DNA of 64,000 bases from Minisyncoccota bacterium (GCA_041664465.1 JBAYKP010000001.1:68204-132203); one strand, 5' to 3'; counted from the first letter of the stretch, positions 1,794 through 59,296 are shown. Numbers and translations: made by a program. The notes: generated by a model not told the origin, from the sequence alone.

Positions 1794-3578
1794 TTATATA
1801 AATTCAGCTTGATAACATTTCTCGCAATACACTATCTCCTTCCTGTCTTCACTTATTGCTGTTTCAAAATTATTCTGACATGGTTCACTCCCATGAGCAT
1901 GTTCTACTGTATTTCTGTATTCTTTATTCTCTGATTCTATACCACCACACATACATTTCCTAGTTTCTAATTTTAATGGATTTGTTTTCTTAAGCCTTTC
2001 ATAATGTCTACAATTAGGGCACAAATGAGGTAAAGCTATTTTCATAGAACGATATAAGATTAATTCATCAGGTAATATTTTGTATGCAGTTGTGCATTGC
2101 TGATTGCAATCTCCTCCATTATGCTCACATTCTATAACTTCATCTAAAATTGAATCTTCTACATTATCAATATGATCTGGTAAATCAACTGATTTCATTG
2201 TTATTGTGTAATCTCTTTCTGTAGAATCACTCCAAATGAAACCCTTCTCAAGAGCTTGATCTTTAGTTAAAGGAAACCATTGATGAGCCCATGATTCATT
2301 GTAGGTCCACATAGAATGCTCTTTGGGATAAAAATCTCCATATTTATAAACTCTACCCTCTTTGTCTATATAAGGCATATCATTCATGTGTTTTTTAATC
2401 CTTGGAATTAATTCTTCATATTCTTCCTTCGTATATTGCTTATTCAAAATACAATATTTTTTATGTCTTAATTTCGCACAACCAAAAAGATTTGTTCCTC
2501 CATAAACATTTTCGCAATATTCTGAATCAATAGTATTATTACTTGATCGTGTAAAAAAGGTATTTTGGCAACGTATAGCCCCTGTTGCTTCATATAAAAG
2601 CTCTGAAGTATCTCCCCCGAGAGTCATATCATAACTATCTTTTAATAATAAACCTCCATGAAAAATATACTTACAATTTTGAACCCCATGAGTCGCAGAA
2701 AAGCAATTCTTGCAACTTTTTGAATTTTGTATATCATCTCCTGAAACATCGATCGAATTAGAAATTAAGGCAAATTTTCTTGGTATTTTATAATACAGCT
2801 CAGCAAATTTTATTTTTGCTTTCTCAATAATAGAATAGCTTCCTAAATTATATTTTAATATTTCTTCTTCATAATCTTTTTTAGAATATTGTTTATTCCA
2901 AATACAATACTTTTGATTCCTCAAATTTATACAACCAAAACACTTAGAGCACCCAAGACAATTAAAAAGAAAAGAAGAATCTATACACTCATCGGAAAAA
3001 TAAGTAAATTTTGTATTATATAAATCACCTGAATTTAAAATTTCATAAACATGATCAGCATTTATTACAAAGTCTGCATCAAGAGAGTCTTTGGTAAATA
3101 TTGGGGTTAAACAATAATAACAATTAATACACTGCATGCCACTGAAGACAAAGGTGCAATTTTTACAACGAATAATTCCATTGCAATATTTGCAATCAGT
3201 TGAATTTTGAATATTAGTTGCCTGGCATGGCACAACTTTTCTCAATTCATCTAATTGCTCAAAAAATGGTTTAGAAAAATCATATTCTTTGCCATAAGAA
3301 AGTGGATTCCAGCTATCACTCCACCAACAATCATTACAAAAGACAACTACTTCTCTGGTTGGAGAAAACAAACTGATGGTATCTTTACCGCAGTTATCGC
3401 AAGAATCTTTATATAAAGTTCTTTCTGAGATATTATTTAACCTATTTATTAATCTACACTCTGGGCAGAAAGTTGGTGGTGGAACTTTAATTTTCTCATA
3501 AAATGAGAAATCATCAGGCTCAATGGTGAAATTAAGCTTGCAGTTCTGACAGGTTCTGTTTTCTGGTTTATGCTCCAT
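1794..3578 (-). CDS. cytoplasmic multi-CxxC (zinc-ribbon-rich) protein of unknown function with an internal duplication
   Basis: 594-aa ORF with more than 20 CxxC/CxxxC pairs. The module ...C..CFGC..L...KYCI(W/L)NKQY(S/T)K(K/E)(D/E)YEE... occurs twice. No signal peptide and no recognised catalytic motif. Confidence 0.5.
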   Translation of the reverse strand: MEHKPENRTCQNCKLNFTIEPDDFSFYEKIKVPPPTFCPECRLINRLNNISERTLYKDSCDNCGKDTISLFSPTREVVVFCNDCWWSDSWNPLSYGKEYDFSKPFFEQLDELRKVVPCQATNIQNSTDCKYCNGIIRCKNCTFVFSGMQCINCYYCLTPIFTKDSLDADFVINADHVYEILNSGDLYNTKFTYFSDECIDSSFLFNCLGCSKCFGCINLRNQKYCIWNKQYSKKDYEEEILKYNLGSYSIIEKAKIKFAELYYKIPRKFALISNSIDVSGDDIQNSKSCKNCFSATHGVQNCKYIFHGGLLLKDSYDMTLGGDTSELLYEATGAIRCQNTFFTRSSNNTIDSEYCENVYGGTNLFGCAKLRHKKYCILNKQYTKEEYEELIPRIKKHMNDMPYIDKEGRVYKYGDFYPKEHSMWTYNESWAHQWFPLTKDQALEKGFIWSDSTERDYTITMKSVDLPDHIDNVEDSILDEVIECEHNGGDCNQQCTTAYKILPDELILYRSMKIALPHLCPNCRHYERLKKTNPLKLETRKCMCGGIESENKEYRNTVEHAHGSEPCQNNFETAISEDRKEIVYCEKCYQAEFI

Positions 3579-3579
3579 A

Positions 3580-3622
3580 ATTCTTAATTCGTAATTCTTA
3601 ATTATTAATTCTTAATTCTTTA
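3580..3622. repeat. tandem heptamer TTAATTC (x~6) immediately upstream of the start codon of the Cys-rich gene
   Basis: ttcttaattcgtaattcttaattattaattcttaattctt. The same heptamer array is found upstream of frr at 12678-12722. Confidence 0.6.
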
Positions 3623-3630
3623 CTTCTAGA

Positions 3631-4863
3631 TTATGCCACAATACAGCCACCTAGGCAAATGTCGCCATCGTAGACTACGATAGACTGACCTTTATCCACC
3701 AGTACATTTTTATTAAAAGTTATTTCACAGGTCAGACCTGTGCAGACTACTTTGCAATCTAAAAGCTCTCCGTGGTAACGAATTTGAGCAGTATACCCGC
3801 CTTGACTCGTCGGCGAGGCAGGAGCTTTATTTTTTTCTGGTATCTCTAGAATCCAATTTGCCTTACTACATAGGACCGTCCTATGTAGTATACCAGTTGG
3901 ACTGGTATATTCTTCCCCTAGGCAAGGCCTAGGGGAAACTGTAATTGTGTTTTTTTCTATATCTTTTGAAACTACATATAAAGGTTTGCTATTATCTTCA
4001 TTTTTGAAAATTGTAAATCCGTGACGTTCTCCGAGTGTGAAGAATATCGCACCGTCGTGTGAACCTATAACTTTTTCTTTTTTATCCTCTTCTCGGCGAG
4101 CAAGTAATACATCCCCCCTCTTAGTTTCAATATAATGTTTAAGAAAATCTTTCATATCTAAAGGACCTAAGAAGCAGACACCTTGACTGTCCTTCTTCAC
4201 TGCTGTCGGAAGTTTATATTTCTCTGCTAATTTGCGCACTTCTGTCTTCTCTAAATGTCCTACTGGAAATAAAGTATGACTCAAATCATCTTGAGTAAGA
4301 GTCCAAAGAAAATATGATTGGTCTTTAGAGGTATCGGGAGATTTAAGTAGGTAATTCTGAATTTTTTCCTCCCCTGCTAAGGGGAGGTGGCTCCTAGCCG
4401 GAGGGGTCTGACCCCCTCGCCCTTCGGGCACTCCCCCTTGGCAGGGGGAGATTGAATTCACTGCATAATGCCCTGTTGCAATAAAATCTGCTCCACGCTC
4501 TTTTGCAAATTCCCAAAAGACTCCAAACTTCACCATGCGGTTGCACATTACATCTGGGTTTGGAGTGTTCCCCTTTTTGTACTCTTCTATCATATAGTCT
4601 GCCACACCTTTCTTGTAAGCCTCTTCTGCATCACATTCTAAAAATGGTATATCGAGATGTGCACAGACTCGCATTGCATCACGTCTTTCATCCTTCCAAG
4701 TGCACTCTATAAAGTCCGGCGACCACGTACGAATAAAAACCCCAACGACGTTGAATCCTTGATCTTTAAGAAGTGCTGTCGCGACGGAGCTATCCACTCC
4801 ACCCGACACACCCACAAATACAGTTTTATTTATTTTCTTTCCCATCTTGCGAAAATTCCACAA
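3631..4863 (-). CDS. mnmA: tRNA-specific 2-thiouridylase MnmA, enlarged by in-frame palindromic insertions
   Basis: MGKKINKTVFVGVSGGVDSS (PP-loop), FIATGHYA, DQSYFLW, ICLGG. The likely true start is M at 4845. The protein is ~410 aa against ~360 typical, because of the inserts at 4368-4450 and 3866-3935. Confidence 0.9.
   Translation of the reverse strand: MWNFRKMGKKINKTVFVGVSGGVDSSVATALLKDQGFNVVGVFIRTWSPDFIECTWKDERRDAMRVCAHLDIPFLECDAEEAYKKGVADYMIEEYKKGNTPNPDVMCNRMVKFGVFWEFAKERGADFIATGHYAVNSISPCQGGVPEGRGGQTPPARSHLPLAGEEKIQNYLLKSPDTSKDQSYFLWTLTQDDLSHTLFPVGHLEKTEVRKLAEKYKLPTAVKKDSQGVCFLGPLDMKDFLKHYIETKRGDVLLARREEDKKEKVIGSHDGAIFFTLGERHGFTIFKNEDNSKPLYVVSKDIEKNTITVSPRPCLGEEYTSPTGILHRTVLCSKANWILEIPEKNKAPASPTSQGGYTAQIRYHGELLDCKVVCTGLTCEITFNKNVLVDKGQSIVVYDGDICLGGCIVA
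3728..3740. repeat. short palindrome caggtcAgacctg (AGGTC-N-GACCT module) inside mnmA
   Basis: Perfect 6-bp arms. The same module is found at 5355-5410. Confidence 0.4.
3866..3935. repeat. three adjacent GC-rich palindromes inserted in frame in mnmA
   Basis: ctacataggac-c-gtcctatgtag (11-bp arms), taccagt-tgg-actggta, and cccctaggc-aag-gcctagggg (9-bp arms). They encode ...HRTVLCSK...SPRPCLGEE. Confidence 0.7.
4368..4450. repeat. 83-nt composite GC-rich palindromic element inserted in frame in mnmA
   Basis: cctcccc-tgctaa-ggggagg, gagggg-tctgac-cccctc, and ctccccc-ttggca-gggggag hairpins in an otherwise AT-rich gene. It encodes ...PCQGGVPEGRGGQTPPARSHLPLAGEE... between the conserved GHYA and DQSYFL motifs. 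Confidence 0.75.
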
Positions 4864-5747
4864 GGAAGTAATCTTTTACTCCCACTTTCTTCTATAACAA
4901 GCTCCCCTCCCTCTATTTTACCTTTATAATCCTTCATTAAATCTCGTAAATTATTTTCGTAAACAATAGAAGAATACCCTGCAGTATACCCATTTATAAG
5001 AATAAATAAAGGGTCATCTGAGAGAACTTGCCCACATAAATTCATAAGATTTAGAAAATCTTCTTCTATCTTCCAAAGTTCATCTTTCGGACCATGCCCA
5101 AAAGATGGTGGATCCATAATGATTGCATCATATTTTCTTCCTCTCTTTACTTCTCTTTTCAAAAATAAAACTACATCTTCTATAAGCCATCTGATAGAAG
5201 CATCTTTGAGTCCTGAGAGTTCTGCATTTGTCCTTGCCCATTCTACTGCATTTTTAGATCCATCTACGTGGCAAACTTCCGCTCCAGCTAAAGCAGCAGC
5301 AAGTGTCGCTCCGCCAGTATAAGCAAATAAATTTAAAACAGAAATTGGTTTATTCCCATAGGTCAGACCTAGGGACTTTTTACTTTCTGCCCCTAGGTCT
5401 GACCTATGGGAATTCTTAATCAATTCTTTCATCCATTCCCAATTTGAAAGTTGCTCGGGGAAAAGTCCTATGTGTTTAAAAGAAGTCGGCTTTATAGAAA
5501 ATTTTAAATCTCCATAAGATATATTCCAATTATTTGGAACACCGTTTTTAATTATCCATTTATTCTTTGTGCCATTACGAATAAATTCCAAGTGAGCTTC
5601 TTGCCACTCTTTATCATTTAAATTCTTTTTCCAAAGAGCTTCAGGATCCGGACGTGACATAGTATACTTGCCATATCTCTCAAGCTTTTGTCCCTCGCCT
5701 GAATCAAGTAATTCGTATTCTTTTTGTTTTGTAGTTTTTAAAATCAT
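4830..5747 (-). CDS. class I SAM-dependent rRNA methyltransferase, RlmI/RlmK-like (COG1092 / PF10672-like)
   Basis: VLNLFAYTGGATLAAALAGA (SAM-binding motif I) and KYDAIIMDPPSFGHG (motif IV). The overall order resembles RlmI/YccW-type 23S rRNA m5C methyltransferases. It carries an in-frame palindrome at 5355-5410. Confidence 0.65.
   Translation of the reverse strand: MILKTTKQKEYELLDSGEGQKLERYGKYTMSRPDPEALWKKNLNDKEWQEAHLEFIRNGTKNKWIIKNGVPNNWNISYGDLKFSIKPTSFKHIGLFPEQLSNWEWMKELIKNSHRSDLGAESKKSLGLTYGNKPISVLNLFAYTGGATLAAALAGAEVCHVDGSKNAVEWARTNAELSGLKDASIRWLIEDVVLFLKREVKRGRKYDAIIMDPPSFGHGPKDELWKIEEDFLNLMNLCGQVLSDDPLFILINGYTAGYSSIVYENNLRDLMKDYKGKIEGGELVIEESGSKRLLPCGIFARWERK
5355..5410. repeat. 20-bp perfect inverted repeat (cccataggtcagacctaggg ... 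ccctaggtctgacctatggg) with a 16-nt spacer, in frame inside the methyltransferase gene
   Basis: Read directly. It encodes the extra segment ...ESKKSLGLTYGNKP... immediately before the SAM-binding motif. Confidence 0.7.
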
Positions 5748-5757
5748 TCTTTTTAAA

Positions 5758-6429
5758 TTATTTAAGGTATTTTGCTATGTTTTTTTTATGTTCAGTAAAA
5801 TTCACTGCATAATGTACTTTACCATCTTTATCATGAAGATAAAATAGATAAGAAGTGACTATTGGATTTATCGCAGCTTTTATTGCCCGAAGTCCTGGAT
5901 TTCCAATAGGTTTTTGTGGTAAACCACTTTCTTTATATGTCGCAGGGGCTATATCAACCTGGAGAGGAATACCTAGTTTTATCCTTTTCCATAAAATCCC
6001 AGAGATTATACCTATGTCTTCCTTGCCACTCGCTTCCTTCTCTAAGATAGAAGCCATTATTATAATATCTTCCAAGCTTCGACCTGACGACTTTATATCT
6101 TGATCAAGTAGCAATACTCTCTTCGTAAAATTTAAAGTCATTGCCTTTAATACTTCATCTGGCGTAGCAAAAGGGAAAAAGAAATACGTATCAGGAAACA
6201 AGTACCCTTGCTTACTCCTAGGATCATTTAGAAATACATCTTTATTAAAATTTGAAATTTTTTCTGAAAGTAATCTAACTATATCTTCATTGGTACTACC
6301 TTCTATAAAAGTAATTTTAATTTGATCTATTTTATGGTCTCCTCTTATTGCTGGCCATAAGATAAAAGAAAACAAAATAACAACTAAAAATACTACTACG
6401 TACTTTATTTTTTCACTTAAATTTTCCAT
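5758..6429 (-). CDS. mltG: endolytic murein transglycosylase MltG (YceG family)
   Basis: An N-terminal TM segment, then QGYLFPDTYFF, ASILEKEA and GLPQKPIGNPGLRAIKAAINP motifs typical of MltG. The start is taken at M 6429 (MENLSEKIK...) rather than the upstream M at 6474. Confidence 0.8.
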   Translation of the reverse strand: MENLSEKIKYVVVFLVVILFSFILWPAIRGDHKIDQIKITFIEGSTNEDIVRLLSEKISNFNKDVFLNDPRSKQGYLFPDTYFFFPFATPDEVLKAMTLNFTKRVLLLDQDIKSSGRSLEDIIIMASILEKEASGKEDIGIISGILWKRIKLGIPLQVDIAPATYKESGLPQKPIGNPGLRAIKAAINPIVTSYLFYLHDKDGKVHYAVNFTEHKKNIAKYLK

Positions 6430-12136: not shown

Positions 12137-12673
12137 TTAGTTATTCATCAGGTCGGTTTCTTTTTTGGCGAAAATTGCTTCAAGGTTTTGGTTCGCTTCA
12201 TCTACGCACTTCTGTATATCATCTTTGGCTCTCTTGGCTTCGTCTTCTGGTAATTCGTTGGTTGTGTCTATTTCAGTTTGTCTTTCTTTTCTGACACTTA
12301 TGCGGGCATCTTCTAACTTCTCTTTCAAAATTTTCACAAGCTTTGATCGATTCTCTGTTGTAAGCATTGGGAAGATAGCGCGCACACCATCACTATCTGA
12401 CACGACTGAAAGTCCAAGGTTCGCAGCTTGGATAGCACTTTCTATTCCCTTAATCTGACTTTTGTCCCAAGGGGCTATTCTAAGAGTCTTTGAATCCTCT
12501 ATAGAGACACTTGCGACATTCTTAATCGGCATGTATGTGCCATAACTCTCGACATTTATAGAGTCCAGTATCATAGGAGTTGCTCTACCTGTATGAACAG
12601 ACCCATACTCTTTCCCTAGCCACTCTTCTACTGTTTTTAATTGTGTTTTAAAACTTGTTGTATTGTATGCCAT
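12137..12673 (-). CDS. frr: ribosome recycling factor
   Basis: 178 aa. ...LDSINVESYGTYMPIKNVASVSIEDSKTLRIAPWDKSQIKGIESAI... matches the RRF family over its full length. Confidence 0.9.
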   Translation of the reverse strand: MAYNTTSFKTQLKTVEEWLGKEYGSVHTGRATPMILDSINVESYGTYMPIKNVASVSIEDSKTLRIAPWDKSQIKGIESAIQAANLGLSVVSDSDGVRAIFPMLTTENRSKLVKILKEKLEDARISVRKERQTEIDTTNELPEDEAKRAKDDIQKCVDEANQNLEAIFAKKETDLMNN

Positions 12674-12677: not shown

Positions 12678-12722
12678 TATTTTAATTCTTAATTCTTAAT
12701 TCTTAATTCTTAATTCTTAATT
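12678..12722. repeat. tandem heptamer TTAATTC x6 immediately upstream of the frr start codon
   Basis: ttaattcttaattcttaattcttaattcttaattcttaatta. The same array is found at 3580-3622. Confidence 0.6.
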
Positions 12723-12729
12723 ACTTTAA

Positions 12730-13431
12730 TTATATCACAAGAGCTATATGCTCCAAAATCATTTTGACCGATGCGCCGGGGATGCTTAGAAAACCTCGGC
12801 AATTTTTAAGTTCTTCTAGAATAAATTTCAAATCTTCATTATTCAGATCTTTCTTCCACTTTTCATACACTCTCCTCTCGATACCATTCACGAGCGAGAT
12901 AGCATAATACCGAAGCCCTCCACTATTCTCATTATCTTTAAATTCTTTTATTATTTCTGCCACTTTTTCGATTCTTTCTTTTGGATTCATTTTCACAAAC
13001 TCCCCACCTATTTTATTCTCAAAATTATTATCTCTTTTTAAATTCTTTATCAGATGCACTCGTGAAAGTATCGTCTCGGCAAGTAATGATGCATCAGGCA
13101 CAACAATGAAGAAGTGCGTATCGTCCATAGGCTCTTCTATTATTTTAAGCAGACTTTGCTCAGCTTCACGATTGATAAATTTGGCTCCAATAATGCAAAC
13201 TTTCTTCTTGCCATCTACCCCTTTATTCTTGTGCCAATCCTTAATATTGTGTCCATCTTCTATATTAAATGCATCATAGAGATTAAGCAATACATCTGGG
13301 CTTCTTTTATTTATATCACCTCGTTCTTCTAAATATATACGCAAAAGATAGACAATCTCTTCTGGATTACCCTCTACAACATAACTATGATACAAATTCT
13401 GTGGGAATAATTGACTAAAATCCATATACAC
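12730..13431 (-). CDS. holB: DNA polymerase III delta-prime subunit-like clamp-loader protein
   Basis: AEQSLLKIIEEP (box VII, AxNALLKxLEEP) and SRVHLI (SRC motif). It is short, like CPR HolB. Confidence 0.65.
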   Translation of the reverse strand: MYMDFSQLFPQNLYHSYVVEGNPEEIVYLLRIYLEERGDINKRSPDVLLNLYDAFNIEDGHNIKDWHKNKGVDGKKKVCIIGAKFINREAEQSLLKIIEEPMDDTHFFIVVPDASLLAETILSRVHLIKNLKRDNNFENKIGGEFVKMNPKERIEKVAEIIKEFKDNENSGGLRYYAISLVNGIERRVYEKWKKDLNNEDLKFILEELKNCRGFLSIPGASVKMILEHIALVI

Positions 13432-17932: not shown

Positions 17933-18325
17933 ATGAGTATGATAGAGAAAGAATTTTCCACTATTGTAAATCTTACAAAAGGCAAGCTACCACGCTTGCC
18001 TTTTGTCTTTATTAAAAATGCTATCCTAGGTAAAAAATATGATCTAGAAGTAGTGTTCTTGACATCCAAAAAACAGAAAGAGATAAATAAAATCTACAGA
18101 AACATAGATAAAACAACCAATATTTTATCTTTCCCTTTGACAAAGACTTCGGGGCAAATAACATTTGATTTATCAAAAGTTAAGAAAGATGCTCCACTTT
18201 TTGATATGATTTACCCCAAATTTCTTAAATATCTGTTTATACACGGGGCTTTGCATTTGAAAGGATACGATCATAGTGCTATAATGGAAAGACAAGAAAA
18301 GAAATTTCTAAAAATGTTTTCTTAG
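17933..18325 (+). CDS. ybeY: endoribonuclease YbeY (rRNA maturation factor)
   Basis: The C-terminal HGALHLKGYDH is the YbeY HxxxHxxGxxH zinc motif. Confidence 0.85.
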   Translation: MSMIEKEFSTIVNLTKGKLPRLPFVFIKNAILGKKYDLEVVFLTSKKQKEINKIYRNIDKTTNILSFPLTKTSGQITFDLSKVKKDAPLFDMIYPKFLKYLFIHGALHLKGYDHSAIMERQEKKFLKMFS

Positions 18326-24639: not shown

Positions 24640-24835
24640 AATAAAGGCAATAAAGTTGCTAATAAATTTCACCGGGACCGTGAGTACACTTATCGACGAT
24701 TACATCGTCAGGTACTTTTCGCTCTGTTTAGCAACAGAGAACGAAAAGTCTTTCGCTTCCCGGACGCGAGATATGCAGATATCTCGCTTAGGGTCACAAA
24801 TTAAAAACACCCTCTTTCGAGAGGTTTTTAATTTG
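24640..24835 (-). ncRNA. candidate structured RNA or multi-hairpin terminator region immediately 3' of tRNA-Glu
   Basis: Four consecutive stem-loops on one strand. One is gggtcacaaattaaaaac.ccctct/agagg.tttttaatttgtgaccc, a ~22-bp stem overlapping the tRNA 3' acceptor strand. The others are cgcgagatatgc-a-gatatctcgc, cttttcgctctgtt/aacagagaacgaaaag and gacgat-gta-atcgtc. No ORF of significance. Confidence 0.25.
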
Positions 24836-24907
24836 TGACCCTACCGGGAATCGAACCCGGATTACCGGCTTGAAAAGCCGATGTCCTAACCGTTAGACGA
24901 TAAGGCC
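24836..24907 (-). tRNA. tRNA-Glu (anticodon TTC)
   Basis: Reverse complement is GGCCTTATCGTCTAACGGTTAGGACATCGGCTTTTCAAGCCGGTAATCCGGGTTCGATTCCCGGTAGGGTCA. The acceptor stem has two G-U pairs and the anticodon loop is TTTTCAA. Confidence 0.75.
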
Positions 24908-25635: not shown

Positions 25636-25956
25636 TTACTGTAAATTTCCAACTGTATAGTCGCCGTTTTGAATCTTGATACCTTTCGTGCCCAATGTAG
25701 TAAGTAAGATATTCATAATTCCAAAGACAGCCACCATAATAAACATTCCGACTACTCCCCAAAGCATATGTTGCTTGCTAGTCTTCCTTATCTCTTCATT
25801 ATCCGGAGACAATAAATATTTCGCAAGTCCATATATAAAGTATATGATAGCCAAAGCAAATAGGAAAGTAATAAGAGGATTGATGATAACCCTATTGATA
25901 CTTGCCATAAGACTGACAACATTTGCTTCTGCAACTGGAATGATTTGAAAATTCAT
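25636..25956 (-). CDS. secreted two-TM hairpin protein, paralogue D (VirB2/TrbC-pilin-like module)
   Basis: Start taken at MNFQIIP. The module is hydrophobic helix (PLITFLFALAIIYFIYG), LSPDNEEIRK loop, then W-containing second helix (MLWGVVGMFIMVAVFGI). It is shared with ORFs 25964-28434. Confidence 0.55.
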   Translation of the reverse strand: MNFQIIPVAEANVVSLMASINRVIINPLITFLFALAIIYFIYGLAKYLLSPDNEEIRKTSKQHMLWGVVGMFIMVAVFGIMNILLTTLGTKGIKIQNGDYTVGNLQ

Positions 25957-25963
25957 AATAATA

Positions 25964-26338
25964 TTAACAAGGCAATAATTGACCAGAAGGAGTGTAAGTA
26001 GGAGTACAAGGAACGATCTGTCTACCTGATGCATTACCTACTCCGAAAGTATTCATAACGATACCTATAATTCCCCAGAAAGCCACAATAACAAAAAGAC
26101 CGATAAGCCCATTGATGATTTTCGCACGGCCACCTTTCTTAGCTTCTTCATCAGAAGACATAATGAACTGAACTATACCCCAGACGAAGTAGATAACTGC
26201 GACAGTAATCAACAAAGGAAGAACATAAGCTAAAAGTTGATTTATTCTAATAAGAATGGTATCAAAAGTTGTTGATTCAGCAAAAACAACAAATGGTGAG
26301 AAAGCCAAAACAGAACCTAATGCAATAATTTTTTTCAT
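25964..26338 (-). CDS. secreted two-TM hairpin protein, paralogue C (signal peptide + VirB2/TrbC-like module; Cys/Pro-rich tail)
   Basis: Signal peptide MKKIIALGSVLAFSPFVVFA, then helix LPLLITVAVIYFVWG, SSDEEAKK loop, helix LIGLFVIVAFWGIIGIV. The C-terminus ends VPCTPTYTPSGQLLPC. Confidence 0.55.
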   Translation of the reverse strand: MKKIIALGSVLAFSPFVVFAESTTFDTILIRINQLLAYVLPLLITVAVIYFVWGIVQFIMSSDEEAKKGGRAKIINGLIGLFVIVAFWGIIGIVMNTFGVGNASGRQIVPCTPTYTPSGQLLPC

Positions 26339-26453
26339 AAAAAACTTTAATAATAAATTATAATAATTTGTTAAATCCTACCGACCGTAGGAGATAAAAC
26401 TAAACGTACAATACTATATGTATATTATAACAACAATGTTTAATATACACAAT

Positions 26454-26810
26454 CTACTGAATCTTTTCTGGAAGACTTGGAAGAGCCGACTTGACCCCAA
26501 ATGTACCAGAGAAAATTCCAACCAATCCCCAAATACTGACCATCACAAATAAAGTGATAATACCCCAGAACATGAAACTTTTCCCATCTTTACGCTTCTC
26601 TTCATTGTCAGGATTCAAGAAATATTTAATAATCCCGTAGACAAAGCCAACGACAGCCAAAGCCACCAATAAAGGGACAACGGCATTCATCAATGTACAA
26701 GTGATAAAGTTGATAATATCCGTCAGACTCTTCATCTCTCCCACTCCCGGACAACTACTAACTGCTCCGTTCAAATTTGACCCTGCTGCATATGCAATCA
26801 ATGTATTCAT
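26454..26810 (-). CDS. two-TM hairpin protein, paralogue B (VirB2/TrbC-like module)
   Basis: VPLLVALAVVGFVYGIIKYFLNPDNEEKRKDGKSFMFWGIITLFVMVSIWG. No obvious cleavable signal peptide in the annotated ORF. Confidence 0.5.
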   Translation of the reverse strand: MNTLIAYAAGSNLNGAVSSCPGVGEMKSLTDIINFITCTLMNAVVPLLVALAVVGFVYGIIKYFLNPDNEEKRKDGKSFMFWGIITLFVMVSIWGLVGIFSGTFGVKSALPSLPEKIQ

Positions 26811-26869
26811 TTTATAAATTTATATTATACTTTTAATTCTTCGACCTATTTAATAAATCAAGTAATAAA

Positions 26870-27328
26870 TTAAGCACCATTGGTAATATCTTTGACTGTC
26901 GATCCGATCGCTTGGGCTATAACATAGGCTCCTAAGAGTAATGCTCCACCGATAACTGTATAAAGGAGCGTCCTGTGCGCTATCTCAAGCTCACTTGGAT
27001 TCCCTTGAGCCTTCACATAGAGGAAGCCAGCATAAATAATAGCCAGAGCAAGGATAGGTATACCCACAACGAGGACGATATTGATAATGGCTTCTATGAA
27101 TTTCGGAATCGTATCTAGATTCTCTCCTAGCGGATTCTTGATCCCCGCATCAACTTTGACTCCTGCAGGACAAGTAGTAGCTGTTGTTTCTACCCCATTA
27201 CATTTAATAGCAAACGCCACAGGACTCAATAGTATAAAACCTAAAACTAAAATAGGTCCTAATTTTAATATATTCCCCAAAATACTATACTTTTTTCTTT
27301 TTAAATTTTTCATACTTTGTCTCGCCAT
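26870..27328 (-). CDS. secreted two-TM hairpin protein, paralogue A (signal peptide + VirB2/TrbC-like module)
   Basis: A basic N-terminus plus signal peptide ...ILVLGFILLSPVAFA, then two hydrophobic helices separated by KAQGNPSELE. Confidence 0.55.
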   Translation of the reverse strand: MARQSMKNLKRKKYSILGNILKLGPILVLGFILLSPVAFAIKCNGVETTATTCPAGVKVDAGIKNPLGENLDTIPKFIEAIINIVLVVGIPILALAIIYAGFLYVKAQGNPSELEIAHRTLLYTVIGGALLLGAYVIAQAIGSTVKDITNGA

Positions 27329-27366
27329 AGCTATTGCGTCGGCGGATTAAAATTTGTTAATAATAA

Positions 27367-28434
27367 TTACTTTTGTAATGATGATTTGTCTAAGAATGTA
27401 TTGATTTCTGCATTTTTATCAAGCAAAGTTGTCATAATAGTATTCACGACAAGCCAAGCTGCGAGAGCCACGATATATCCGATAACTACATTGAAGAGTA
27501 TATGCCTTGCTTTCTCTGTCTGGCCTGCACTCCCACCAGCCGTCAAGAATAAATAGGCAGTATACATTATGATAAGAGCTACCAATGGAGTCGCAATAGT
27601 AAATAATACGAATTTAATAAGATTATTTAGCAATAACATAAAATAATTGAAATCACAGGGATTCTTGTATTGACCAGTCACTTTGTCTATCTCGCCAGTA
27701 TTACAAGTGGGGACAATTTTACTGCCATTATCTTGGATAACGGGAGTAGGAGTATTGATAGGAGTGACAGGAGCATTTTTATCTATCAATGTATCGAATC
27801 CAATTTGTTTATGAGTAACATTACCGTCTAAATTTAAATCTAGTGATGCGTCATAAGAGTGCCCTGCAGTTAAACCCTCTACTTTAAATTGAAATGTCCC
27901 ATCAGAAGCTGAATTAATAGTCCATACTTTAAATGGAGCTTGCGCCGTCCTATCATACACTGATAATTGATAAGCTTGACTTGTCATCAGACCAGAAGCT
28001 TTCAATAAAACAGAGGTCATAGTGACAGAAGTAATATCGTATTGAAATACAATATACTCTGCGGTAATGATTCTAAAAATGTCAGAGCTGACGGTACTCA
28101 AATTACTAAAATTCATCACTGTAATCTTGCCATCTGTAGCACCAACGGGCACTTTAACTTTGATTTCAGTAGCCGTACAACTTTCTACAATAGTTCGGAC
28201 CGTATTAAATGTTACATAATCTAGACGCTGGAAATTCTCACCCTTAATAGTAATGACGTCACCTATCTTTGCAGAAAGCGGGCTAATGCTTGTAATCACG
28301 GGAGTAACTTTGGCATTTAGAAGTGAAGAATCATCACATTTCACTGCAGCAAAAACCTTATTCACATTTATAAAACTACTTATAAAAATAATGACCAGTA
28401 TTAAACTAAATATAATTCCAATATTTTTTTTCAT
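27367..28434 (-). CDS. secreted IPT/TIG-domain protein with a C-terminal two-TM pilin-like module (fusion paralogue)
   Basis: Signal peptide, then ITSISPLSAKIGDVITIKGENF...TEIKVKVPVGATDGKITV (IPT/TIG-like Ig fold), a beta-rich middle, then the C-terminal FVLFTIATPLVALIIMYTAYLFL..GQTEKARHILFNVVIGYIVALAAWLVV module shared with the four downstream paralogues. Confidence 0.55.
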   Translation of the reverse strand: MKKNIGIIFSLILVIIFISSFINVNKVFAAVKCDDSSLLNAKVTPVITSISPLSAKIGDVITIKGENFQRLDYVTFNTVRTIVESCTATEIKVKVPVGATDGKITVMNFSNLSTVSSDIFRIITAEYIVFQYDITSVTMTSVLLKASGLMTSQAYQLSVYDRTAQAPFKVWTINSASDGTFQFKVEGLTAGHSYDASLDLNLDGNVTHKQIGFDTLIDKNAPVTPINTPTPVIQDNGSKIVPTCNTGEIDKVTGQYKNPCDFNYFMLLLNNLIKFVLFTIATPLVALIIMYTAYLFLTAGGSAGQTEKARHILFNVVIGYIVALAAWLVVNTIMTTLLDKNAEINTFLDKSSLQK

Positions 28435-38367: not shown

Positions 38368-38910
38368 ATGATTAAAATTGTTCAAAGTGAAGATCCAGTC
38401 CTACGCAAAATATCAAAGGAAGTTCCTCTCGCTCTCATCAGCAAACCGAAAATACAAAAAATCGTACAAGATATGATGGTGGCTTTAGATTCTCAAGATG
38501 ATGGTGTAGCTATTGCTGCTCCACAGATAGGAGTATCACTTCGTATCTTTGTAATCTCTGGAAGAATTTTCGATGAAGATTTCATTAGAGGAAAAGGCTC
38601 AACGCAAGGCGATCTCTACAAGAAAGCTCGTCGCCCTGATATGGTCTTTATCAATCCAATATTGAAGAAGATATCTAAAGATAGAAAGCTCCTATCCGAA
38701 GGATGCCTCTCTGTCCGACCTCTATATGGCAAAGTCCGCCGTGCCACTCGTGCCTCAGTCGAAGCTTATGATGAAAATGGCAAGAAATTTAGCAAAGATG
38801 GAAATGGATTACTCGCTCATATTTTTCAACACGAGACAGATCATCTAGATGGAATACTCTTCACAGACAAAGCAAAAGATATACACGAAACGCTTTTAGA
38901 TGAAGAATAA
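38368..38910 (+). CDS. def: peptide deformylase
   Basis: GVAIAAPQIG (motif 1), EGCLSV (motif 2) and HETDHLDG (motif 3). Confidence 0.9.
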   Translation: MIKIVQSEDPVLRKISKEVPLALISKPKIQKIVQDMMVALDSQDDGVAIAAPQIGVSLRIFVISGRIFDEDFIRGKGSTQGDLYKKARRPDMVFINPILKKISKDRKLLSEGCLSVRPLYGKVRRATRASVEAYDENGKKFSKDGNGLLAHIFQHETDHLDGILFTDKAKDIHETLLDEE

Positions 38911-38911
38911 A

Positions 38912-38936
38912 CCTAGCAAGAACGGTTCTTGCTAGG
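38912..38936. repeat. REP palindrome cctagcaagaac-G-gttcttgctagg (12-bp arms), followed by two half-copies that overlap the 3' end of the RAYT gene
   Basis: Perfect palindrome. Half-repeats ttcttgctagg run to ~38975. Confidence 0.75.
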
Positions 38937-38955
38937 TTCTTGCTAGGTTTTCTTG

Positions 38956-39636
38956 CTAGGTTTGAGGTTCTAGGGTTTCAAAATAATTTTCAACAAATTC
39001 CTTAAAAGATTGTTTATTATGAAAATAATCTGGAAAATTATCTTTATTTAAAATACTATTTTCTATTCTATCATCTCCTGTATAATCTTGATAACTAGAA
39101 TATTTATATGATTCTAAAAAGTTCTTCATATCTACTGATGACTTATTCAAATTATCTTCCCACTCAGGAAATTCTATCTCTAATGAATTAAGATGAATAT
39201 ATGCAAATAATTGTCTTAAATAATTATCATCATTCCCTACTAATTTAGCTTTAAATAATCCTCCAAATAATGCTCCTTTTCTTTGATATTTTATATTAAA
39301 AAACATTGAATATCCTACTCCTAATTTTCTCATAAATTTAGTTATACCACCATCAACATCTTGTCTAACTAATATGTGAAAGTGATTGTTCATCAAACAC
39401 CACGCACCAATAGAGATAATACTCTTTTCTTTTTTGATTTTTAAAATATCATAGTATTTTTTATTTTGATTATTTACAAGATTATCAATCCGAAAAGATT
39501 CTTCAGAGTTTGCGAGATAAAGAAGCATAATAAATCTTTCATAATCTCCTTTGATTTTAAAAATTACTCTCTTATCAATACCCCTATTATAAATATGGTA
39601 ATATTCTCCTGTTATAAATGGATCTTTCCTTAACAT
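38956..39636 (-). CDS. IS200/IS605-family Y1 (HUH) transposase, REP-associated tyrosine transposase (RAYT)-like
   Basis: GEYYHIYNRG..., LMNNHFHILV (HUH motif) and ...QLFAYIHLNSL (candidate catalytic Tyr). It is flanked on both sides by the same 25-bp REP. Confidence 0.6.
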   Translation of the reverse strand: MLRKDPFITGEYYHIYNRGIDKRVIFKIKGDYERFIMLLYLANSEESFRIDNLVNNQNKKYYDILKIKKEKSIISIGAWCLMNNHFHILVRQDVDGGITKFMRKLGVGYSMFFNIKYQRKGALFGGLFKAKLVGNDDNYLRQLFAYIHLNSLEIEFPEWEDNLNKSSVDMKNFLESYKYSSYQDYTGDDRIENSILNKDNFPDYFHNKQSFKEFVENYFETLEPQT

Positions 39637-39662
39637 AATTATATTATATCAATTTCAAACGC

Positions 39663-39687
39663 ACCTAGCAAGAACGGTTCTTGCTAG
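39663..39687. repeat. REP palindrome copy (same orientation as 38912) plus a half-copy
   Basis: cctagcaagaacggttcttgctagg, followed by tagttcttgctagg. Confidence 0.75.
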
Positions 39688-39716
39688 GTAGTTCTTGCTA
39701 GGTTCTATAAAATATA

Positions 39717-40295: not shown

Positions 40296-40350
40296 GTAAT
40301 ATTGCGAATAGTCTCACGAAATATCAAAAGGTGATATCGTGATATCGAAA

Positions 40351-40375
40351 CCTAGCAAGAACCGTTCTTGCTAGG
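40351..40375. repeat. REP palindrome copy in inverted orientation (central C)
   Basis: cctagcaagaac-C-gttcttgctagg, preceded by the direct repeat gtgatatcgtgatatcg. Confidence 0.7.
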
Positions 40376-40404
40376 TGGAGGAGGTGTGATATACTCTGTG
40401 GTAT

Positions 40405-41280
40405 ATGAATACAGAGAAAAAGAATCTAAAATTTATATTCTTTGGGACACCCTATGCCGCAAGTAAGACATTGCAAATACTTAAAGAAAGAGGATATATA
40501 CCAGAAGTGATTGTGACCTCTCCCGATGCAAAAAAGGGGCGTGGCTTGGAAATGCACGAAACGTCAGTATCAACTTGGGCTAAGGAGAATAATATAAAAT
40601 GCTTAAAGCCTGAAAAAATTGATGAAGAATTTATAAATAATATTTTCCCTAGCCACAAGTCCGACTTGTGGCCGATACTTTCTGTAGTTGTGGCTTATGG
40701 GAAAATACTCCCAGAAATACTAATCAAAAAGCCTGAATTTGGAACTATAAATGTTCATTATTCCCTTCTTCCAAAATACAGAGGTGCATCTCCTCTTGAG
40801 GCTTGCCTATTAAATGGAGATGAAGTTACTGGGGTAAGTATTCAGCAGATGGAATATAAATTAGACAGTGGGCAAATATTACGAGAAGAGAAAATAGATA
40901 TAGGTATAAATGATACTAAAGAAGAATTACGTGAGACTCTCATAAGTCTAGGAGGAAATGTCTTATGTGATATTTTACCCCAAATAGTAAACCAAGAAAT
41001 TAAATCAAAAGCTCAAGATGAGAATCTAGCGACCTTCTGTAAGAAAATTAAAAAAGAAGATGGGGAAATCAATCTAGAAGAAAATGCTAAAGAGAATTGG
41101 AATAAATACAGAGCTTACTCTGGCTGGCCTGGGGTATTCTTCTTTGCAACTAAACATAATAAAAAGATAAGGTGCAAAATAACCAAAGCTAAATTAGAAA
41201 ATAATCAATTTATTATTGAAAAAATAATACCGGAAAGTAAAAAGGAGATAGATTATGAATCTTTCTTAAAACAAAATTAG
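40405..41280 (+). CDS. fmt: methionyl-tRNA formyltransferase
   Basis: KFIFFGTPYAA, VVVAYGKILP, INVHYSLLPKYRGASPL. It carries a 21-bp palindrome (40653-40673) in frame (...PSHKSDLWPI...). Confidence 0.85.
   Translation: MNTEKKNLKFIFFGTPYAASKTLQILKERGYIPEVIVTSPDAKKGRGLEMHETSVSTWAKENNIKCLKPEKIDEEFINNIFPSHKSDLWPILSVVVAYGKILPEILIKKPEFGTINVHYSLLPKYRGASPLEACLLNGDEVTGVSIQQMEYKLDSGQILREEKIDIGINDTKEELRETLISLGGNVLCDILPQIVNQEIKSKAQDENLATFCKKIKKEDGEINLEENAKENWNKYRAYSGWPGVFFFATKHNKKIRCKITKAKLENNQFIIEKIIPESKKEIDYESFLKQN
40653..40673. repeat. palindrome gccacaagtc-c-gacttgtggc in frame inside fmt
   Basis: 10-bp arms. A near-identical element (gccataagtccgacttatggc) lies inside rnhB. Confidence 0.65.
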
Positions 41281-49746: not shown

Positions 49747-50256
49747 TTGATATCATATGATATAATAAAAATTATGGGAAAGATAAATATCTACATTGAT
49801 GGAAATAATTTATATCGCTCGGCCAAAGAATTAGGATTTGAAATTGATTATAAAAAGTTCCGTGTATGGTTATCTCAAAAATATAATACAAAAAACATAT
49901 TTCTTTTTATTGGGTATTTAGAAAATAGAAAAGATTTTTATAATTATCTTAAAAATTGTGGTTTTGATTTAATATTTAAAGAAGCAGTTCTTCATGAAGG
50001 TAATATTAAGGGAAATTGCGATGCCGAACTTGTATTAAAATCGGTTGATGATTATCATCTAAAGAATTTTGATAAATTTATACTAATTTCTAATGATGGA
50101 GATTTCGGTTGTCTTATTGAATTCTTAATAAATAAAAATTGTTTTGACATTATATTATCTCCTGATAGAAAGAAGTGTTCTATTTTATTGAGAAATAAAA
50201 CAAATAAGATTTTATATTTAAACGAAATTTATAAAAAGTTCTCAAAAAAGAAATAA
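49747..50256 (+). CDS. NYN-domain (PIN-like) putative ribonuclease
   Basis: INIYIDGNNLY, GNCDAEL, ILISNDGDF: the acidic residues of the LabA/NYN fold. Confidence 0.6.
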   Translation: MISYDIIKIMGKINIYIDGNNLYRSAKELGFEIDYKKFRVWLSQKYNTKNIFLFIGYLENRKDFYNYLKNCGFDLIFKEAVLHEGNIKGNCDAELVLKSVDDYHLKNFDKFILISNDGDFGCLIEFLINKNCFDIILSPDRKKCSILLRNKTNKILYLNEIYKKFSKKK

Positions 50257-50414
50257 TATAGTCTATATAAAAAGAAAAAGCTCCCGGTATGGGCGCACCC
50301 ATACAGGGATCTCTTTCATAATGATATCAGTATTATATCATATTGCCGAAAGTATGCAAGTATTTTATTTAGGTTCGAACTTCTACCAAAGCAGGGAAAA
50401 TAGATCTTAAATTA

Positions 50415-50438
50415 CCTAACAAGAACCGTTCTTGCTAT
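50415..50438. repeat. degenerate REP copy (cctaacaagaac-c-gttcttgctat)
   Basis: Two mismatches relative to the 38912 REP. It is intergenic, next to the R-M/MazG block. Confidence 0.5.
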
Positions 50439-50444
50439 ATTTAA

Positions 50445-50840: not shown

Positions 50841-50843
50841 AAA

Positions 50844-51092: not shown

Positions 51093-51152
51093 ACAATATT
51101 TGAAGTGATTATTAATATCCTAATCATATGCCTATTTATGGATAAATCAAGG

Positions 51153-51866: not shown

Positions 51867-51889
51867 TTTTATGATTATTATATTAATTA

Positions 51890-53356
51890 TTAAAATAAAG
51901 ATGGCTGAACTTTATAAAATTGAGGATGAACAAAATCTTTCATGAAACTTTTAGCATATGATTTATATCCACCACGATAACTTTTGGAAATTGAATTTAT
52001 ATACTCTTCCATTGAATTTGAATTTAACACTTCGCAAAGGGCATATAGATCAACATCTTTATTTTTTGGTTTTATACAATAACCAGAATAAAAACTTGTT
52101 TTTTCGTCTTCTATTACAAAAAAGTGAGGAGTGAGATTCATTGTACTAGTTATTATTTTTTTACCAAAACCAGTTTTTAAACTTTGGTTTCTTCCAAAAG
52201 AATAAAATTCTTCATAATTTTTACCACCACCCTTGTCTCTTTTTTCTAAAATATCACGATTATATAAAAAATATTTATATGCTTCTGGATATTTATTTAT
52301 AAAAATATTTTTAGGAATTATTCTTTCATTTTTATACGGAAAAATCAAAAAAAGATTCTGATTTTTCCCTTTATAAGTAGATGCTTTAATAATTGGAACA
52401 CACAAATTTCTCTCTATTTTAAAATTATCTTTATAAAAATATATTTTATCTATTTTTTCAGGAGAAAATATATAAACATCATCTTTTAATGTAGCAATTC
52501 CATAATGGATGTCCGCTATTTCTTGAAGTGTTGAATATTTTTTATTTAATTTATCTATTTTTTTAGAATATTCTTCACTTAAAAATTGCCATGGTTTTAA
52601 CTTATCTTCTATATTTTTCAATATCTTTTTATAAACAATATCATTAAAATTATTTTTATAGTTCTCTGTATATAAAAAATTATGGGTATTTTCTTTATTT
52701 AAAAATGTTATGGCGGTGTAAGTTGTTGCGTCTTTAAATACCTGAAAGTGATCAAAATTAATGATTTTTGTTAAATGTGGATAAATTAAATTTCTTAAAT
52801 TTCTCCCAGCACTAGAGTGAAAATGAGAGTTAGGTGTAATAAAAGAAAGTTTCCCGTTTTCTGTTAATAAATTCAGAGACTGCTCAAAAAAACAAAAATA
52901 TAAATCAATGGAGCCATTAGATGCTGATATAAACTTCTTTTGTATTTCATCTCTTTTTTCATTAAGATTTTGTATTCTCACATATGGAGGATTACCTATT
53001 ATAAAATTAAATTTCTCTTTAAAATCATGAAAACAAAAATCATTAATAATTGAGTTATATTGGGTAATTTCTTCATTAGATAATTCTTGTAAATTTTGTT
53101 TTGTTTTGTTTATATATTCTTCTGAAATGTCAATAAAATAAAGATTGTTTTCAATTACATCTTTTATTGATTTTCCAGATATTTTAGAAAATTTCTTAAC
53201 TATTGGAATAGAAAAAGCACCTTCTCCACATCCAGAATCTAATATTTTTTCTGATCCTGTTATTTTTGTATCTTTAAATACTTCATCAATCATAAAATCA
53301 ACTATCCATTCCGGAGTAAAAACAACGCCATTTTCTTTTTTAGATTTAACATTCAT
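51890..53356 (-). CDS. N6-adenine DNA methyltransferase (gamma-class; TaqI/Eco57I-like)
   Basis: GVVFTPEWIVDFM (motif X), LDSGCGEGAF (motif I FxGxG) and IIGNPPY (motif IV) in gamma-class order. A C-terminal target-recognition region. Confidence 0.8.
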   Translation of the reverse strand: MNVKSKKENGVVFTPEWIVDFMIDEVFKDTKITGSEKILDSGCGEGAFSIPIVKKFSKISGKSIKDVIENNLYFIDISEEYINKTKQNLQELSNEEITQYNSIINDFCFHDFKEKFNFIIGNPPYVRIQNLNEKRDEIQKKFISASNGSIDLYFCFFEQSLNLLTENGKLSFITPNSHFHSSAGRNLRNLIYPHLTKIINFDHFQVFKDATTYTAITFLNKENTHNFLYTENYKNNFNDIVYKKILKNIEDKLKPWQFLSEEYSKKIDKLNKKYSTLQEIADIHYGIATLKDDVYIFSPEKIDKIYFYKDNFKIERNLCVPIIKASTYKGKNQNLFLIFPYKNERIIPKNIFINKYPEAYKYFLYNRDILEKRDKGGGKNYEEFYSFGRNQSLKTGFGKKIITSTMNLTPHFFVIEDEKTSFYSGYCIKPKNKDVDLYALCEVLNSNSMEEYINSISKSYRGGYKSYAKSFMKDFVHPQFYKVQPSLF

Positions 53357-58570: not shown

Positions 58571-59296
58571 TTAGTGTATAAATGACTTGCGATGGATTGG
58601 GGTCTGACCGTGAGTTCTGATGGCAGAATAGTGAGCGCGGGTACCATAACCCATATGCTTATTGAAACCGTATTCGGGGTAATCCAAAGCATACTTTGTC
58701 ATAATCCTATCTCGCGAAACTTTCGCCACAATGGATGCCAAAGAAATAACCGGATGAAGCTCATCCCCTCTTATAATCGTCTCCTGATTTATGTACTCTA
58801 CTGGGGCATGAAGTCCACCATCGAGAAAAATCTTGAACGAAGAGAGCGAAACAGAATCTTCCAAATTTTTATCGGCGTCGGAGCCCTTTAGGGTAAGCCC
58901 TGAAAAATTTGGAAGATTCTGTGAAGCGACTTTATCAAGTGACTGATTCAAAGCTTTCTGAATACATTTTGCAATTCCAAATTTATCAATATTCTCGGGG
59001 GAAACAAAAGACACAGCATAGTCGCAAAGACCTTCGGTCTTTGCGACTTTCAAATATTCAAACCACTCTTCCCTTTGCTTCTTACTAAGCTTCTTCGAAT
59101 CTTTTAATTTTGGTAATTTTACATAGGACGGTCCTATGTCTTTTTTGCCATAAGTCCGACTTATGGCTGATTCAATAAAATTATTATCCTTAATTAAAAA
59201 AGCACAAACAGCCACTGGCCCTGCCAAAGGGCCCCGACCAACCTCATCTATGCCAATTATGTATTTTGTGGTGTCTAAAGCTCCCATATAGAACAA
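58571..59296 (-). CDS. rnhB: ribonuclease HII
   Basis: IIGIDEVGRGPLAGPVAVCA (DEVGRG catalytic motif). It carries two in-frame palindromes at 59121-59167. Confidence 0.85.
   Translation of the reverse strand: MFYMGALDTTKYIIGIDEVGRGPLAGPVAVCAFLIKDNNFIESAISRTYGKKDIGPSYVKLPKLKDSKKLSKKQREEWFEYLKVAKTEGLCDYAVSFVSPENIDKFGIAKCIQKALNQSLDKVASQNLPNFSGLTLKGSDADKNLEDSVSLSSFKIFLDGGLHAPVEYINQETIIRGDELHPVISLASIVAKVSRDRIMTKYALDYPEYGFNKHMGYGTRAHYSAIRTHGQTPIHRKSFIH
59121..59167. repeat. two palindromes (acataggac-g-gtcctatgt and gccataagtc-c-gacttatggc) in frame in rnhB
   Basis: They are related to the mnmA element ctacataggaccgtcctatgtag and the fmt element gccacaagtccgacttgtggc. They encode ...RTYGKKDIGPSYVKLPK.... 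Confidence 0.7.

Follow-up and report, generated by a model that had tools for sequence, protein, structure and literature searches.

A perfect hairpin in frame within a Paceibacterota methyltransferase gene is probably one copy of a dispersed palindromic repeat family

The window analysed here is a 64,000-nt stretch of a 133-kb contig from the genome of an ultra-small bacterium of Candidatus Paceibacterota (CPR). Its minus strand contains, at 4830–5747, a gene for a 305-aa class I SAM-dependent methyltransferase. The protein belongs to PF10672 (43 bits against a cut-off of 27), and its closest solved relative is PDB 2igt, an uncharacterised Agrobacterium protein (phmmer, E = 2.6e-64), on which the model of the host protein was superposed by Foldseek with a TM of 0.86. 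The preliminary description had called the product an rRNA methyltransferase. This name is no more than a guess at family level; the models for RlmI, RlmK and related enzymes matched only the catalytic domain and scored far under their cut-offs (52.5 bits against 712 for the RlmI equivalog NF011707, over the catalytic domain and not the full length). To the right of the window, the contig runs on for about 1.7 kb.

Within this gene there is a palindromic element of 62 bases (5352–5413, minus strand), which reads ATTCCCATAGGTCAGACCTAGGG-GCAGAAAGTAAAAAGT-CCCTAGGTCTGACCTATGGGAAT in the mRNA sense. Its two arms are 23 nt each and 100% complementary; the plus-strand left arm at 5352–5374 (ATTCCCATAGGTCAGACCTAGGG) corresponds to the 3′ arm of the hairpin in the mRNA and the right arm at 5391–5413 (CCCTAGGTCTGACCTATGGGAAT) to the 5′ arm, and they are separated by a linker, or loop, of 16 nt at 5375–5390. 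A 20-bp perfect inverted repeat had been proposed at 5355–5410; the repeat is real, but the 20-nt arms are only the inner part of the longer ones, and the 16-nt spacer and the internal palindromy of the arms were found as described. Each arm contains a 19-nt unit conserved in the family presented below, CCATAGGTCAGACCTAGGG at 5356–5374 on the left and CCCTAGGTCTGACCTATGG at 5391–5409 on the right, with an inner palindrome TAGGTC-N-GACCTA in each (5359–5371, where the centre base is A, and 5394–5406). When compared as direct repeats, the two arms are 81% alike. The linker is A-rich on the mRNA strand (GCAGAAAGTAAAAAGT) and encodes A E S K K, and its ends (NCA..AAAGN) are common to other long copies of the family.

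A chance origin of the hairpin is excluded, because nothing comparable appeared in shuffled sequence and the z-scores of its folds were extreme. With up to three mismatches allowed, the 20-mer had no match in 100 dinucleotide shuffles, and perfect hairpins with a stem of at least 12 and a loop of at most 30 numbered 22 in the window as against none in 20 dinucleotide shuffles. The sense-strand RNA of the element folded into a 25-bp helix (−49 kcal/mol, z = −10.7), and its DNA fold reached −27.9 kcal/mol (z = −10.0). An Rfam scan of the element returned no family at the gathering score; below threshold there were only matches to animal miRNA precursors, that is, generic hairpin noise. We also rejected an intrinsic terminator, with no terminator-like sites in 4800–5800 and a sense strand that runs on as GGGAATAAACCAATT without a T run, and a promoter, since promoter-like matches were at chance level.

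The element is read as N-SHRSDLGAESKKSLGLTY-GN in the host ORF, and its translation, N SHRSDLGAESKKSLGLTYG N, covers residues about 112–132 (predicted peptide stretch of the insert, SHRSDLGAESKK). The reading frame is intact, from which we infer that the element is read through in frame and translated. In the phmmer alignment to 2igt, a gap of 18 residues falls exactly at SHRSDLGAESKKSLGLTY, a few residues upstream of VLNLFAYTGG (motif I, FAYTGG), so that the contribution of some 18 residues directly before the SAM-binding motif, suggested earlier, was borne out. The AlphaFold model of the host protein has a mean pLDDT of 86, with residues 115–131 below 50; this low-confidence loop joins helix 97–113 to strand 136–140 (β1 of the Rossmann fold), ahead of FAYTGG. 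The model thus predicts that the insert forms an extra, unstructured, Lys/Ser/Gly-rich surface loop of about 18–20 residues.

No second full copy of the element was found in the 64-kb window, either with the 20-mer at up to three mismatches or with a covariance model (R1, see below), and only related single units were present. These are palindromes and are given here without strand. A unit TTCCCCTAGGC-AAG-GCCTAGGGGAA lies in frame in the neighbouring mnmA at 3913–3937, a site that in orthologues is occupied by a single unit of family A (PRSDLG / HRSDLW), and a second, identical copy lies at 57300–57328, in frame in the gene for an M1 aminopeptidase (55884–58538, plus strand). The RNase HII gene contains GCCATAAGTC-C-GACTTATGGC at 59147–59167, which is the unit of family A after compensated changes that turned G-C into A-T pairs. 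A formyltransferase gene has, in frame at 40652–40672, the unit GCCACAAGTC-C-GACTTGTGGC, whose half-arm variants also occur in a diverged full copy elsewhere (L014:6721-6774). Near the 3′ end of mnmA, at 3725–3743, there is CACAGGTC-T-GACCTGTG; at the orthologous position in three other loci (L019, L020 and L024) the centre base is flipped and the outer pair is compensated.

The window is rich in such palindromic inserts. It has 24 GC-rich perfect hairpins with a stem of at least 9, where shuffles had 1.9 ± 1.2, and many of the 24 lie within genes. MnmA (3631–4863) alone contains a GC-rich insert at 4370–4451 and a triple hairpin at 3864–3937 besides the single unit at 3725–3743, and the M1 aminopeptidase carries copies of two MnmA inserts (57300–57328 and 57847–57898). 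RNase HII has a family-D-type repeat at 58851–58922 and three more hairpins, and YbeY and the formyltransferase have one hairpin insert each. In a comparison of seven MnmA orthologues, inserts varied at five sites or more, and the families found there differed.

Searching for the arms elsewhere, as the preliminary description had advised, showed that they are present at non-orthologous Paceibacterota loci, both intergenic and in frame. The exact two-arm pattern occurred at 3 loci in species-representative genomes, and the 19-mer CCATAGGTCAGACCTAGGG at 15 metagenome loci. The covariance model R1, built from 15 copies, found two further, more diverged copies; on the element in the window it scored 79.6 bits on the minus strand and 58.4 on the plus strand. 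Matches from genome collections were titled Nomurabacteria, Paceibacterota or Patescibacteria. The building block of the family is a palindromic unit of 19–25 nt, ..CCATAGGTC-N-GACCTATGG.., which occurs in three forms: as a long form of two inverted units with an A-rich linker of 16–24 nt and conserved linker ends, as a linker-free, perfect palindrome of 43 nt with a GGGGAWTCCCC centre, and as a single unit of 19–25 nt on its own. The A-rich linker was on the mRNA strand in all 15 long copies (72–90 bits in the sense and 51–65 in the antisense orientation). Contigs of 704, 593 and 457 kb had one exact copy each, and on the contig L015 four copies lay within 4 kb.

The intergenic copies were mostly found in tiny spacers between ribosomal-protein genes (L3|L4, L14|L24, L5|S14, S14|S8 and S8|L6); about 10 of 13 distinct copies lay in spacers of the S10/spc operon, with the next ATG 6–12 nt downstream. 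Copies in frame were found in genes for MnmA (L011), a XerC/D-type recombinase (L010, two copies) and an R3H-domain protein (L002/L016). The coding copies have TTC...GAA flanks in common, apparently because the arms are longer in this subfamily and not because the flanks are a target. In phages, the 19-mer had no match in IMG/VR, and blastn gave no match in 50,697 phage records. When the insert peptide was used as a 30-aa phmmer query against 1.84 billion representatives, nothing was found at E ≤ 0.001, and a concatenated query of 42 aa brought up no candidate either; for such short queries the sensitivity is low, and these results are not evidence of absence.

We compared 120 close Paceibacterota orthologues of the methyltransferase. 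Universal presence of the segment would have spoken against an insertion; it is not universal, because the baseline length of the orthologues is 287 aa without it (..IKK-RSEPISVL..), and many of the 120, including the two nearest relatives, lack it. In other orthologue lineages the same loop carries at least five unrelated short inserts. Family A (SHRSDL..) is present in the window and in P0004, with decayed copies in P0010 and P0042; family B (GKRPCLKGAQGKA) has a 12-bp hairpin in its DNA; family C (YELRIKN) is encoded by a tract of the heptamer GAATTAN; family D (SLDNFSGPR..PDHEKLSKDS) has DNA arms of about 23 nt; family E reads EECYPVGDSAESRIKN; and a further type was seen in P0068 only. 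Remnants are frequent at the site, for example ..TTYGNKPIS in P0042 and ..CGKRPCS in P0066. An ortholog with 4% protein divergence (P0003) has an apparent family-D remnant there, one with 7% (P0002) has family B with a different hairpin (AGGCCTTGCCTT..AAGGCAAGGCCT), and in one with 10% (P0006) the site is empty. The independent assembly L020 has a family-A element at the orthologous methyltransferase site. It is clear that the segment is not universal and that the occupants of the insert site change quickly.

The way in which coding copies are read follows from the arms themselves. The first arm, CCATAGGTCAGACCTAGGG, contains TAG in two of its three frames and the sole open frame gives HRSDLG, while the second arm has two open frames, LGLTYG or PRSDLW. 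Every coding copy uses the HRSDLG...LGLTYG (or PRSDLW) readings, and it is because only one frame of the first arm lacks TAG that the surviving coding copies are in frame; copies in the other frames would truncate the gene, and genomes carrying them should therefore be selected out. The four long coding copies measured 60, 66, 66 and 66 nt. Ten intergenic copies measured 63–68 nt, and only 5 of them were multiples of 3. These sequences show that the in-frame status reflects a filter and not design, as survivorship predicts. The intergenic spacers in this genome are about 10 nt, so insertions would persist only in spacers or in tolerant loops with an open frame.

The signs of a mobile element were also looked for. 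No target-site duplication was evident at more than 20 junctions, neither a transposase nor specifically a RAYT (Y1 HUH) transposase was found among the 20 ORFs of the window or in the Pfam annotations of loci L019–L026, and no insertion sequence was found in the loci examined. Mobility is consequently inferred from the distribution of the copies and from presence or absence in close relatives. The fact that the long copies share one orientation is compatible to the same degree with a hairpin-dependent transposition of single strands, as in REP/IS200 systems, and with selection.

The element had been compared to a MITE inserted in frame. Insertion of a repeat-like element that is read in frame is supported, with the qualification that no target-site duplication and no related transposase were found; the architecture is nearer to a REP dimer (BIME), and the behaviour to the palindromic elements of Rickettsia (RPEs). 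Like the bacterial MITEs Correia, ERIC, RUP and BOX, it is small, looks non-autonomous, has terminal inverted repeats and occurs both between and within genes, and MITEs sometimes create in-frame fusions, as here (PMC10969869, PMC2229807). MITEs, however, have inverted repeats flanked by a target-site duplication, whereas here there are inverted repeats only, and no parent insertion sequence with matching ends was seen in the loci examined. In addition, almost the entire element consists of its terminal repeats, which are themselves palindromes that also occur alone, and it is this occurrence of the arms as separate palindromic units that places the architecture nearer to a REP dimer than to a MITE.

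REPs are imperfect palindromes of 20–40 nt, often arranged as head-to-head pairs with a linker (Di Nocera et al. 2013, PMC3733652), and similarly the units described here occur alone at 19–25 nt and as inverted dimers with linkers of 1–24 nt. REPs are also found in transcribed spacers within operons and occasionally inside genes, different REPs occupy about the same recB site in Xanthomonas species, and REPs are believed to function in RNA as hairpins, while RAYT tyrosine transposases are believed to mobilise them in the form of single-stranded hairpins (PMC3733652). On the other side, no RAYT was found among the 20 window ORFs or in L019–L026, the stems here are long and perfect (19–23 bp), a large share of the copies is coding, and the GTAG/CGTC tag of REPs is missing, with GTAG, CTAC, CGTC and GACG all absent from the consensus CCATAGGTCAGACCTAGGG and its flanks (PMC3733652). 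The copy number also appears to differ. Contigs of 457–704 kb have one exact copy each, L015 has 4 copies in 4 kb, and many copies of the family are coding, in counts that cover contigs and not whole genomes; typical REP or RPE families are far more abundant, and the low number of exact copies per genome counts against a typical repeat of either kind.

In behaviour the element comes closest to the palindromic elements of Rickettsia, RPE-1 to RPE-10, which were described by Ogata et al. (2000/2002) and are summarised in two later accounts (PMC10969869, PMC1779305). Both are interspersed palindromes that lie between genes and, in frame, in unrelated housekeeping genes (PMC10969869, PMC1779305); both are translated into extra peptide where the fold allows it, at tolerant surface positions, with several families per genome; and both are found in small-genome, host-dependent bacteria, have no known transposase and leave old copies as lineage-specific inserts. 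They differ in size, RPEs being 100–150 bp long and the repeats described here 43–68 nt, with single units of 19–25 nt (PMC1779305, PMC10969869). The host phylum is Paceibacterota and not Rickettsiales, and sequence relatedness is without support. The copy number is apparently much lower here, the element is composed of two inverted units, and its site changes occupants rapidly. Perfect inverted repeats that keep both pairing and coding are also found in translated mitochondrial genes of Nematomorpha, although there the arms encode conserved protein and are not dispersed, whereas here they belong to a repeat family and form an extra, dispensable, disordered loop (PMC6649704). In the full-text literature, with subscription journals mostly outside it, we found no description of RPE-, REP- or MITE-type repeats in CPR/Patescibacteria, and the element is apparently undescribed in CPR bacteria.

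Taken together, the sequences show the hairpin in the methyltransferase gene to be one copy of a dispersed Paceibacterota palindromic repeat family, best read as a REP/BIME-like dimer that behaves like an RPE and is probably translated and tolerated as a passenger. Copies would spread by a transposition-like or recombination-like process acting on a single-stranded DNA hairpin, as has been proposed for REPs and for IS200/IS605-type elements, and inserted copies would later decay by deletion, which would produce the variation in loop length. The copy in the methyltransferase is most likely a passenger that the enzyme tolerates and that takes no part in catalysis.

A different explanation is that selection keeps the hairpin for its function as a structure in RNA or in single-stranded DNA, with its home role between ribosomal-protein cistrons, for example as an RNase III processing site or as a delimiter of the unstructured start region in an organism that makes no use of Shine-Dalgarno sites, and that in the methyltransferase gene it also modulates the stability or translation of the mRNA. 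We consider this unlikely, but it accounts for several observations. The arms and part of the linker are far more conserved than the flanking synonymous sites and spacers. Between the window and L020, the elements differ by two substitutions in 60 nt, which together make one compensatory change of an A-T to a C-G pair, and by a 6-nt indel in the linker, while the rest of the methyltransferase gene has diverged by 20.6% (40% at third positions). Similarly, L001 and L015 have S14|S8 copies that are identical at all 38 arm positions, with 20–28% divergence in the flanking genes and 25–38% in the spacers. A decaying passenger would be expected to be less conserved, and in this respect the observations speak against the passenger reading. 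Pairing is also kept perfect by compensation in L014:6721-6774 (four compensated arm changes, zero mismatches) and in the single units of MnmA, where amino acids change and the pairing stays. The single orientation relative to transcription and the position of most intergenic copies shortly before an ATG in the S10/spc operon would also be expected. No Shine-Dalgarno motif was seen at the genes of the window, and a 25-bp RNA helix is long enough for RNase III.

Against a selected hairpin, the closest relatives lack the methyltransferase copy and some other orthologues have it in decayed form, the coding hosts are unrelated genes, and four copies (L010b, L012, L013 and L015_d) have 1–3 unpaired positions. 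The proximity to start codons is accounted for by the very short spacers alone. Finding copies by an exact arm match inflates their apparent conservation, and a covariation test on 15 long copies was not significant (one covarying pair, with the observed score reached by 52 of 500 shuffles); the test was underpowered, because most of these copies had been found by that same exact match. Arm conservation beyond that of neutral sites points either to a constraint on the hairpin at the level of nucleic acid or to fold-back or template-switch copying that homogenises the arms; a further possible cause is that insertions hit the same sites repeatedly and recently. The concentration of copies in ribosomal-protein operons, in an organism whose genes lack a Shine-Dalgarno motif, makes an RNA-level role conceivable, and the bias of the intergenic copies towards these operons hints at function or at targeting.

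We also asked whether the protein segment itself might be what is selected, that is, an adaptive, lineage-specific, Lys-rich loop, in contact with RNA for example, whose palindromy is incidental. Its hydrophilic, basic character and its place next to the cofactor-binding motif would suit such a role; it is nevertheless very improbable, as the loop is predicted to be disordered, close orthologues have either no insert at the site or one of at least five unrelated sequences, the same DNA occurs in non-coding spacers, and the single units alter their amino acids yet keep their base pairing. Equally hard to accept is that the palindrome arose in place, by inverted duplication or template switching, unrelated to sequences elsewhere. 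Template switching can create and perfect palindromes, and the flips of the centre base (A/T, C/G) and the linker-free perfect palindromes fit fold-back copying; many assemblies, however, have the same 19-nt arms with similar linkers, which occupy more than 10 non-orthologous loci, so this process may maintain the arms but cannot explain their dispersal. An artefact of assembly or amplification can be dismissed: although chimeras of multiple-displacement amplification can yield perfect inverted repeats by fold-back, the identical protein is on record at NCBI, JGI and ENA and the contig at ENA, the same element lies at the orthologous site of the L020 assembly and others of its kind in JGI, ENA, NCBI and Logan assemblies, and the reading frame is intact.

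A more far-reaching version of the repeat-family reading, which we put forward only tentatively and regard as rather unlikely, is that Paceibacterota run an active hairpin system, in which a superfamily of short units would continually insert, have its palindromes perfected through fold-back or template-switch copying, and give way to other units at a few recurrent sites. The long form would have been adopted as a functional RNA hairpin between cistrons of the S10/spc operons in these bacteria, which lack Shine-Dalgarno sites, and the coding copies would be spill-over. If this were true, the hairpin could mark sites of RNA processing or set an unstructured start region about 10 nt downstream, and the coding copies would be a main source of variation in loop length in CPR housekeeping proteins.

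Coding palindromic repeats have long been seen as a peculiarity of Rickettsia, and the dispersed family described here is a comparable case in CPR/Paceibacterota, host-dependent bacteria with reduced genomes. It suggests that in tiny genomes with very short spacers, selfish hairpin repeats are pushed into permissive protein loops. The family is a concrete source for many short insertions in CPR proteins that have had no explanation, and it bears on annotation, alignments and structure prediction in this large group of uncultured bacteria. A single loop with at least five repeat families, together with the conservation of the arms and the operon bias, offers testable ways to approach the movement of such repeats and the question whether some have gained a role at the RNA level.

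Within mnmA, window positions 4370-4451 hold a GC-rich insert with several small hairpins; it measures about 80 nt and encodes about 30 amino acids (SPCQGGVPEGRGGQTPPARSHLPLAG). The same insert was found in the MnmA of L023, a locus from another assembly, while the other MnmA orthologues have different inserts at this site or none; in that of L011, another mnmA-bearing locus, exactly this site is occupied by an element of family A, the dispersed palindromic repeat. An in-frame piece of 52 nt with 83% identity to the mnmA insert was observed in the M1 aminopeptidase gene (57847-57898), and the coding sequence of that gene also includes a perfect hairpin with a 10-bp stem (56464-56505). Elsewhere in mnmA, at 3864-3937, three perfect hairpins with stems of 13, 9 and 11 bp follow one another and encode the peptide ..SPRPCLGEEYTSPTGILHRTV... 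A similar triple arrangement is present in mnmA of L011, with a family-A unit in the first place.

The RNase HII gene (58571..59296, minus strand) carries four palindromic inserts, at 58851-58922, 59020-59048, 59121-59139 and 59147-59167. One of them, with perfect 20-nt arms and a 32-nt loop, reads NLPNFSG..DKNLEDS and is similar to the insert of family D that other genomes carry at the methyltransferase site. A perfect hairpin with a 13-bp stem also lies in the coding sequence of ybeY (17975-18006).

In other assemblies, a gene for a XerC/D-type tyrosine recombinase (L010:4303-5328, minus strand) holds two copies of family A in frame; one is intact and the other has three mismatches. Intergenic family-A copies are concentrated in the spacers of S10/spc ribosomal-protein operons (L3|L4, L14|L24, L5|S14, S14|S8 and S8|L6), as observed in L015:1-4062 and in L001, L003, L005, L006, L008, L012, L013 and L014. 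The copies fill these spacers almost completely, and 6-12 nt separate the end of a copy from the next ATG.

At 3579-3627 and 12682-12739 the heptamer AATTCTT, whose coding-strand form is GAATTAA, forms tracts that abut, on the upstream side, the start codons of the ORFs 1794..3578 and 12137..12673, respectively. A closely related GAATTAN tract is present in frame (YELRIKN or YELGIRN) at the methyltransferase insert site of many orthologues. The palindrome ACCTAGCAAGAAC-S-GTTCTTGCTAGGT, with a 13-bp stem, occurs four times in the window, always between genes (38909-38963, 39661-39703, 40348-40376 and 50412-50440); some copies have extra tandem half-copies and runs of A and T on their flanks. 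These palindromes may act as bidirectional terminators or belong to another repeat family. At 24789-24843 there is a perfect inverted repeat with 20-nt arms and a 15-nt loop, whose right arm extends into the 3' end of a tRNA gene (24836-24907, minus strand).

As for gene content, five ORFs in a run (25636-28434) match type IV secretion pilin (PF18895/TrbC), and an IPT/TIG domain is present in one of the five. A stretch of low GC content (26%) at about 50000-54000, which may be an acquired island, includes an MmeI/Eco57I-type methyltransferase-like ORF (51890..53356; according to the Pfam note on locus L026), just upstream of which lies an NYN-domain ORF (49747..50256).

Shine-Dalgarno motifs were essentially absent from the 30-nt stretches that precede about 45 of the ORF starts in the window. 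Many of the genes carry a TATAAT-like box, placed 5-12 nt ahead of the ATG; this suggests that translation is initiated on leaderless transcripts or independently of Shine-Dalgarno motifs.
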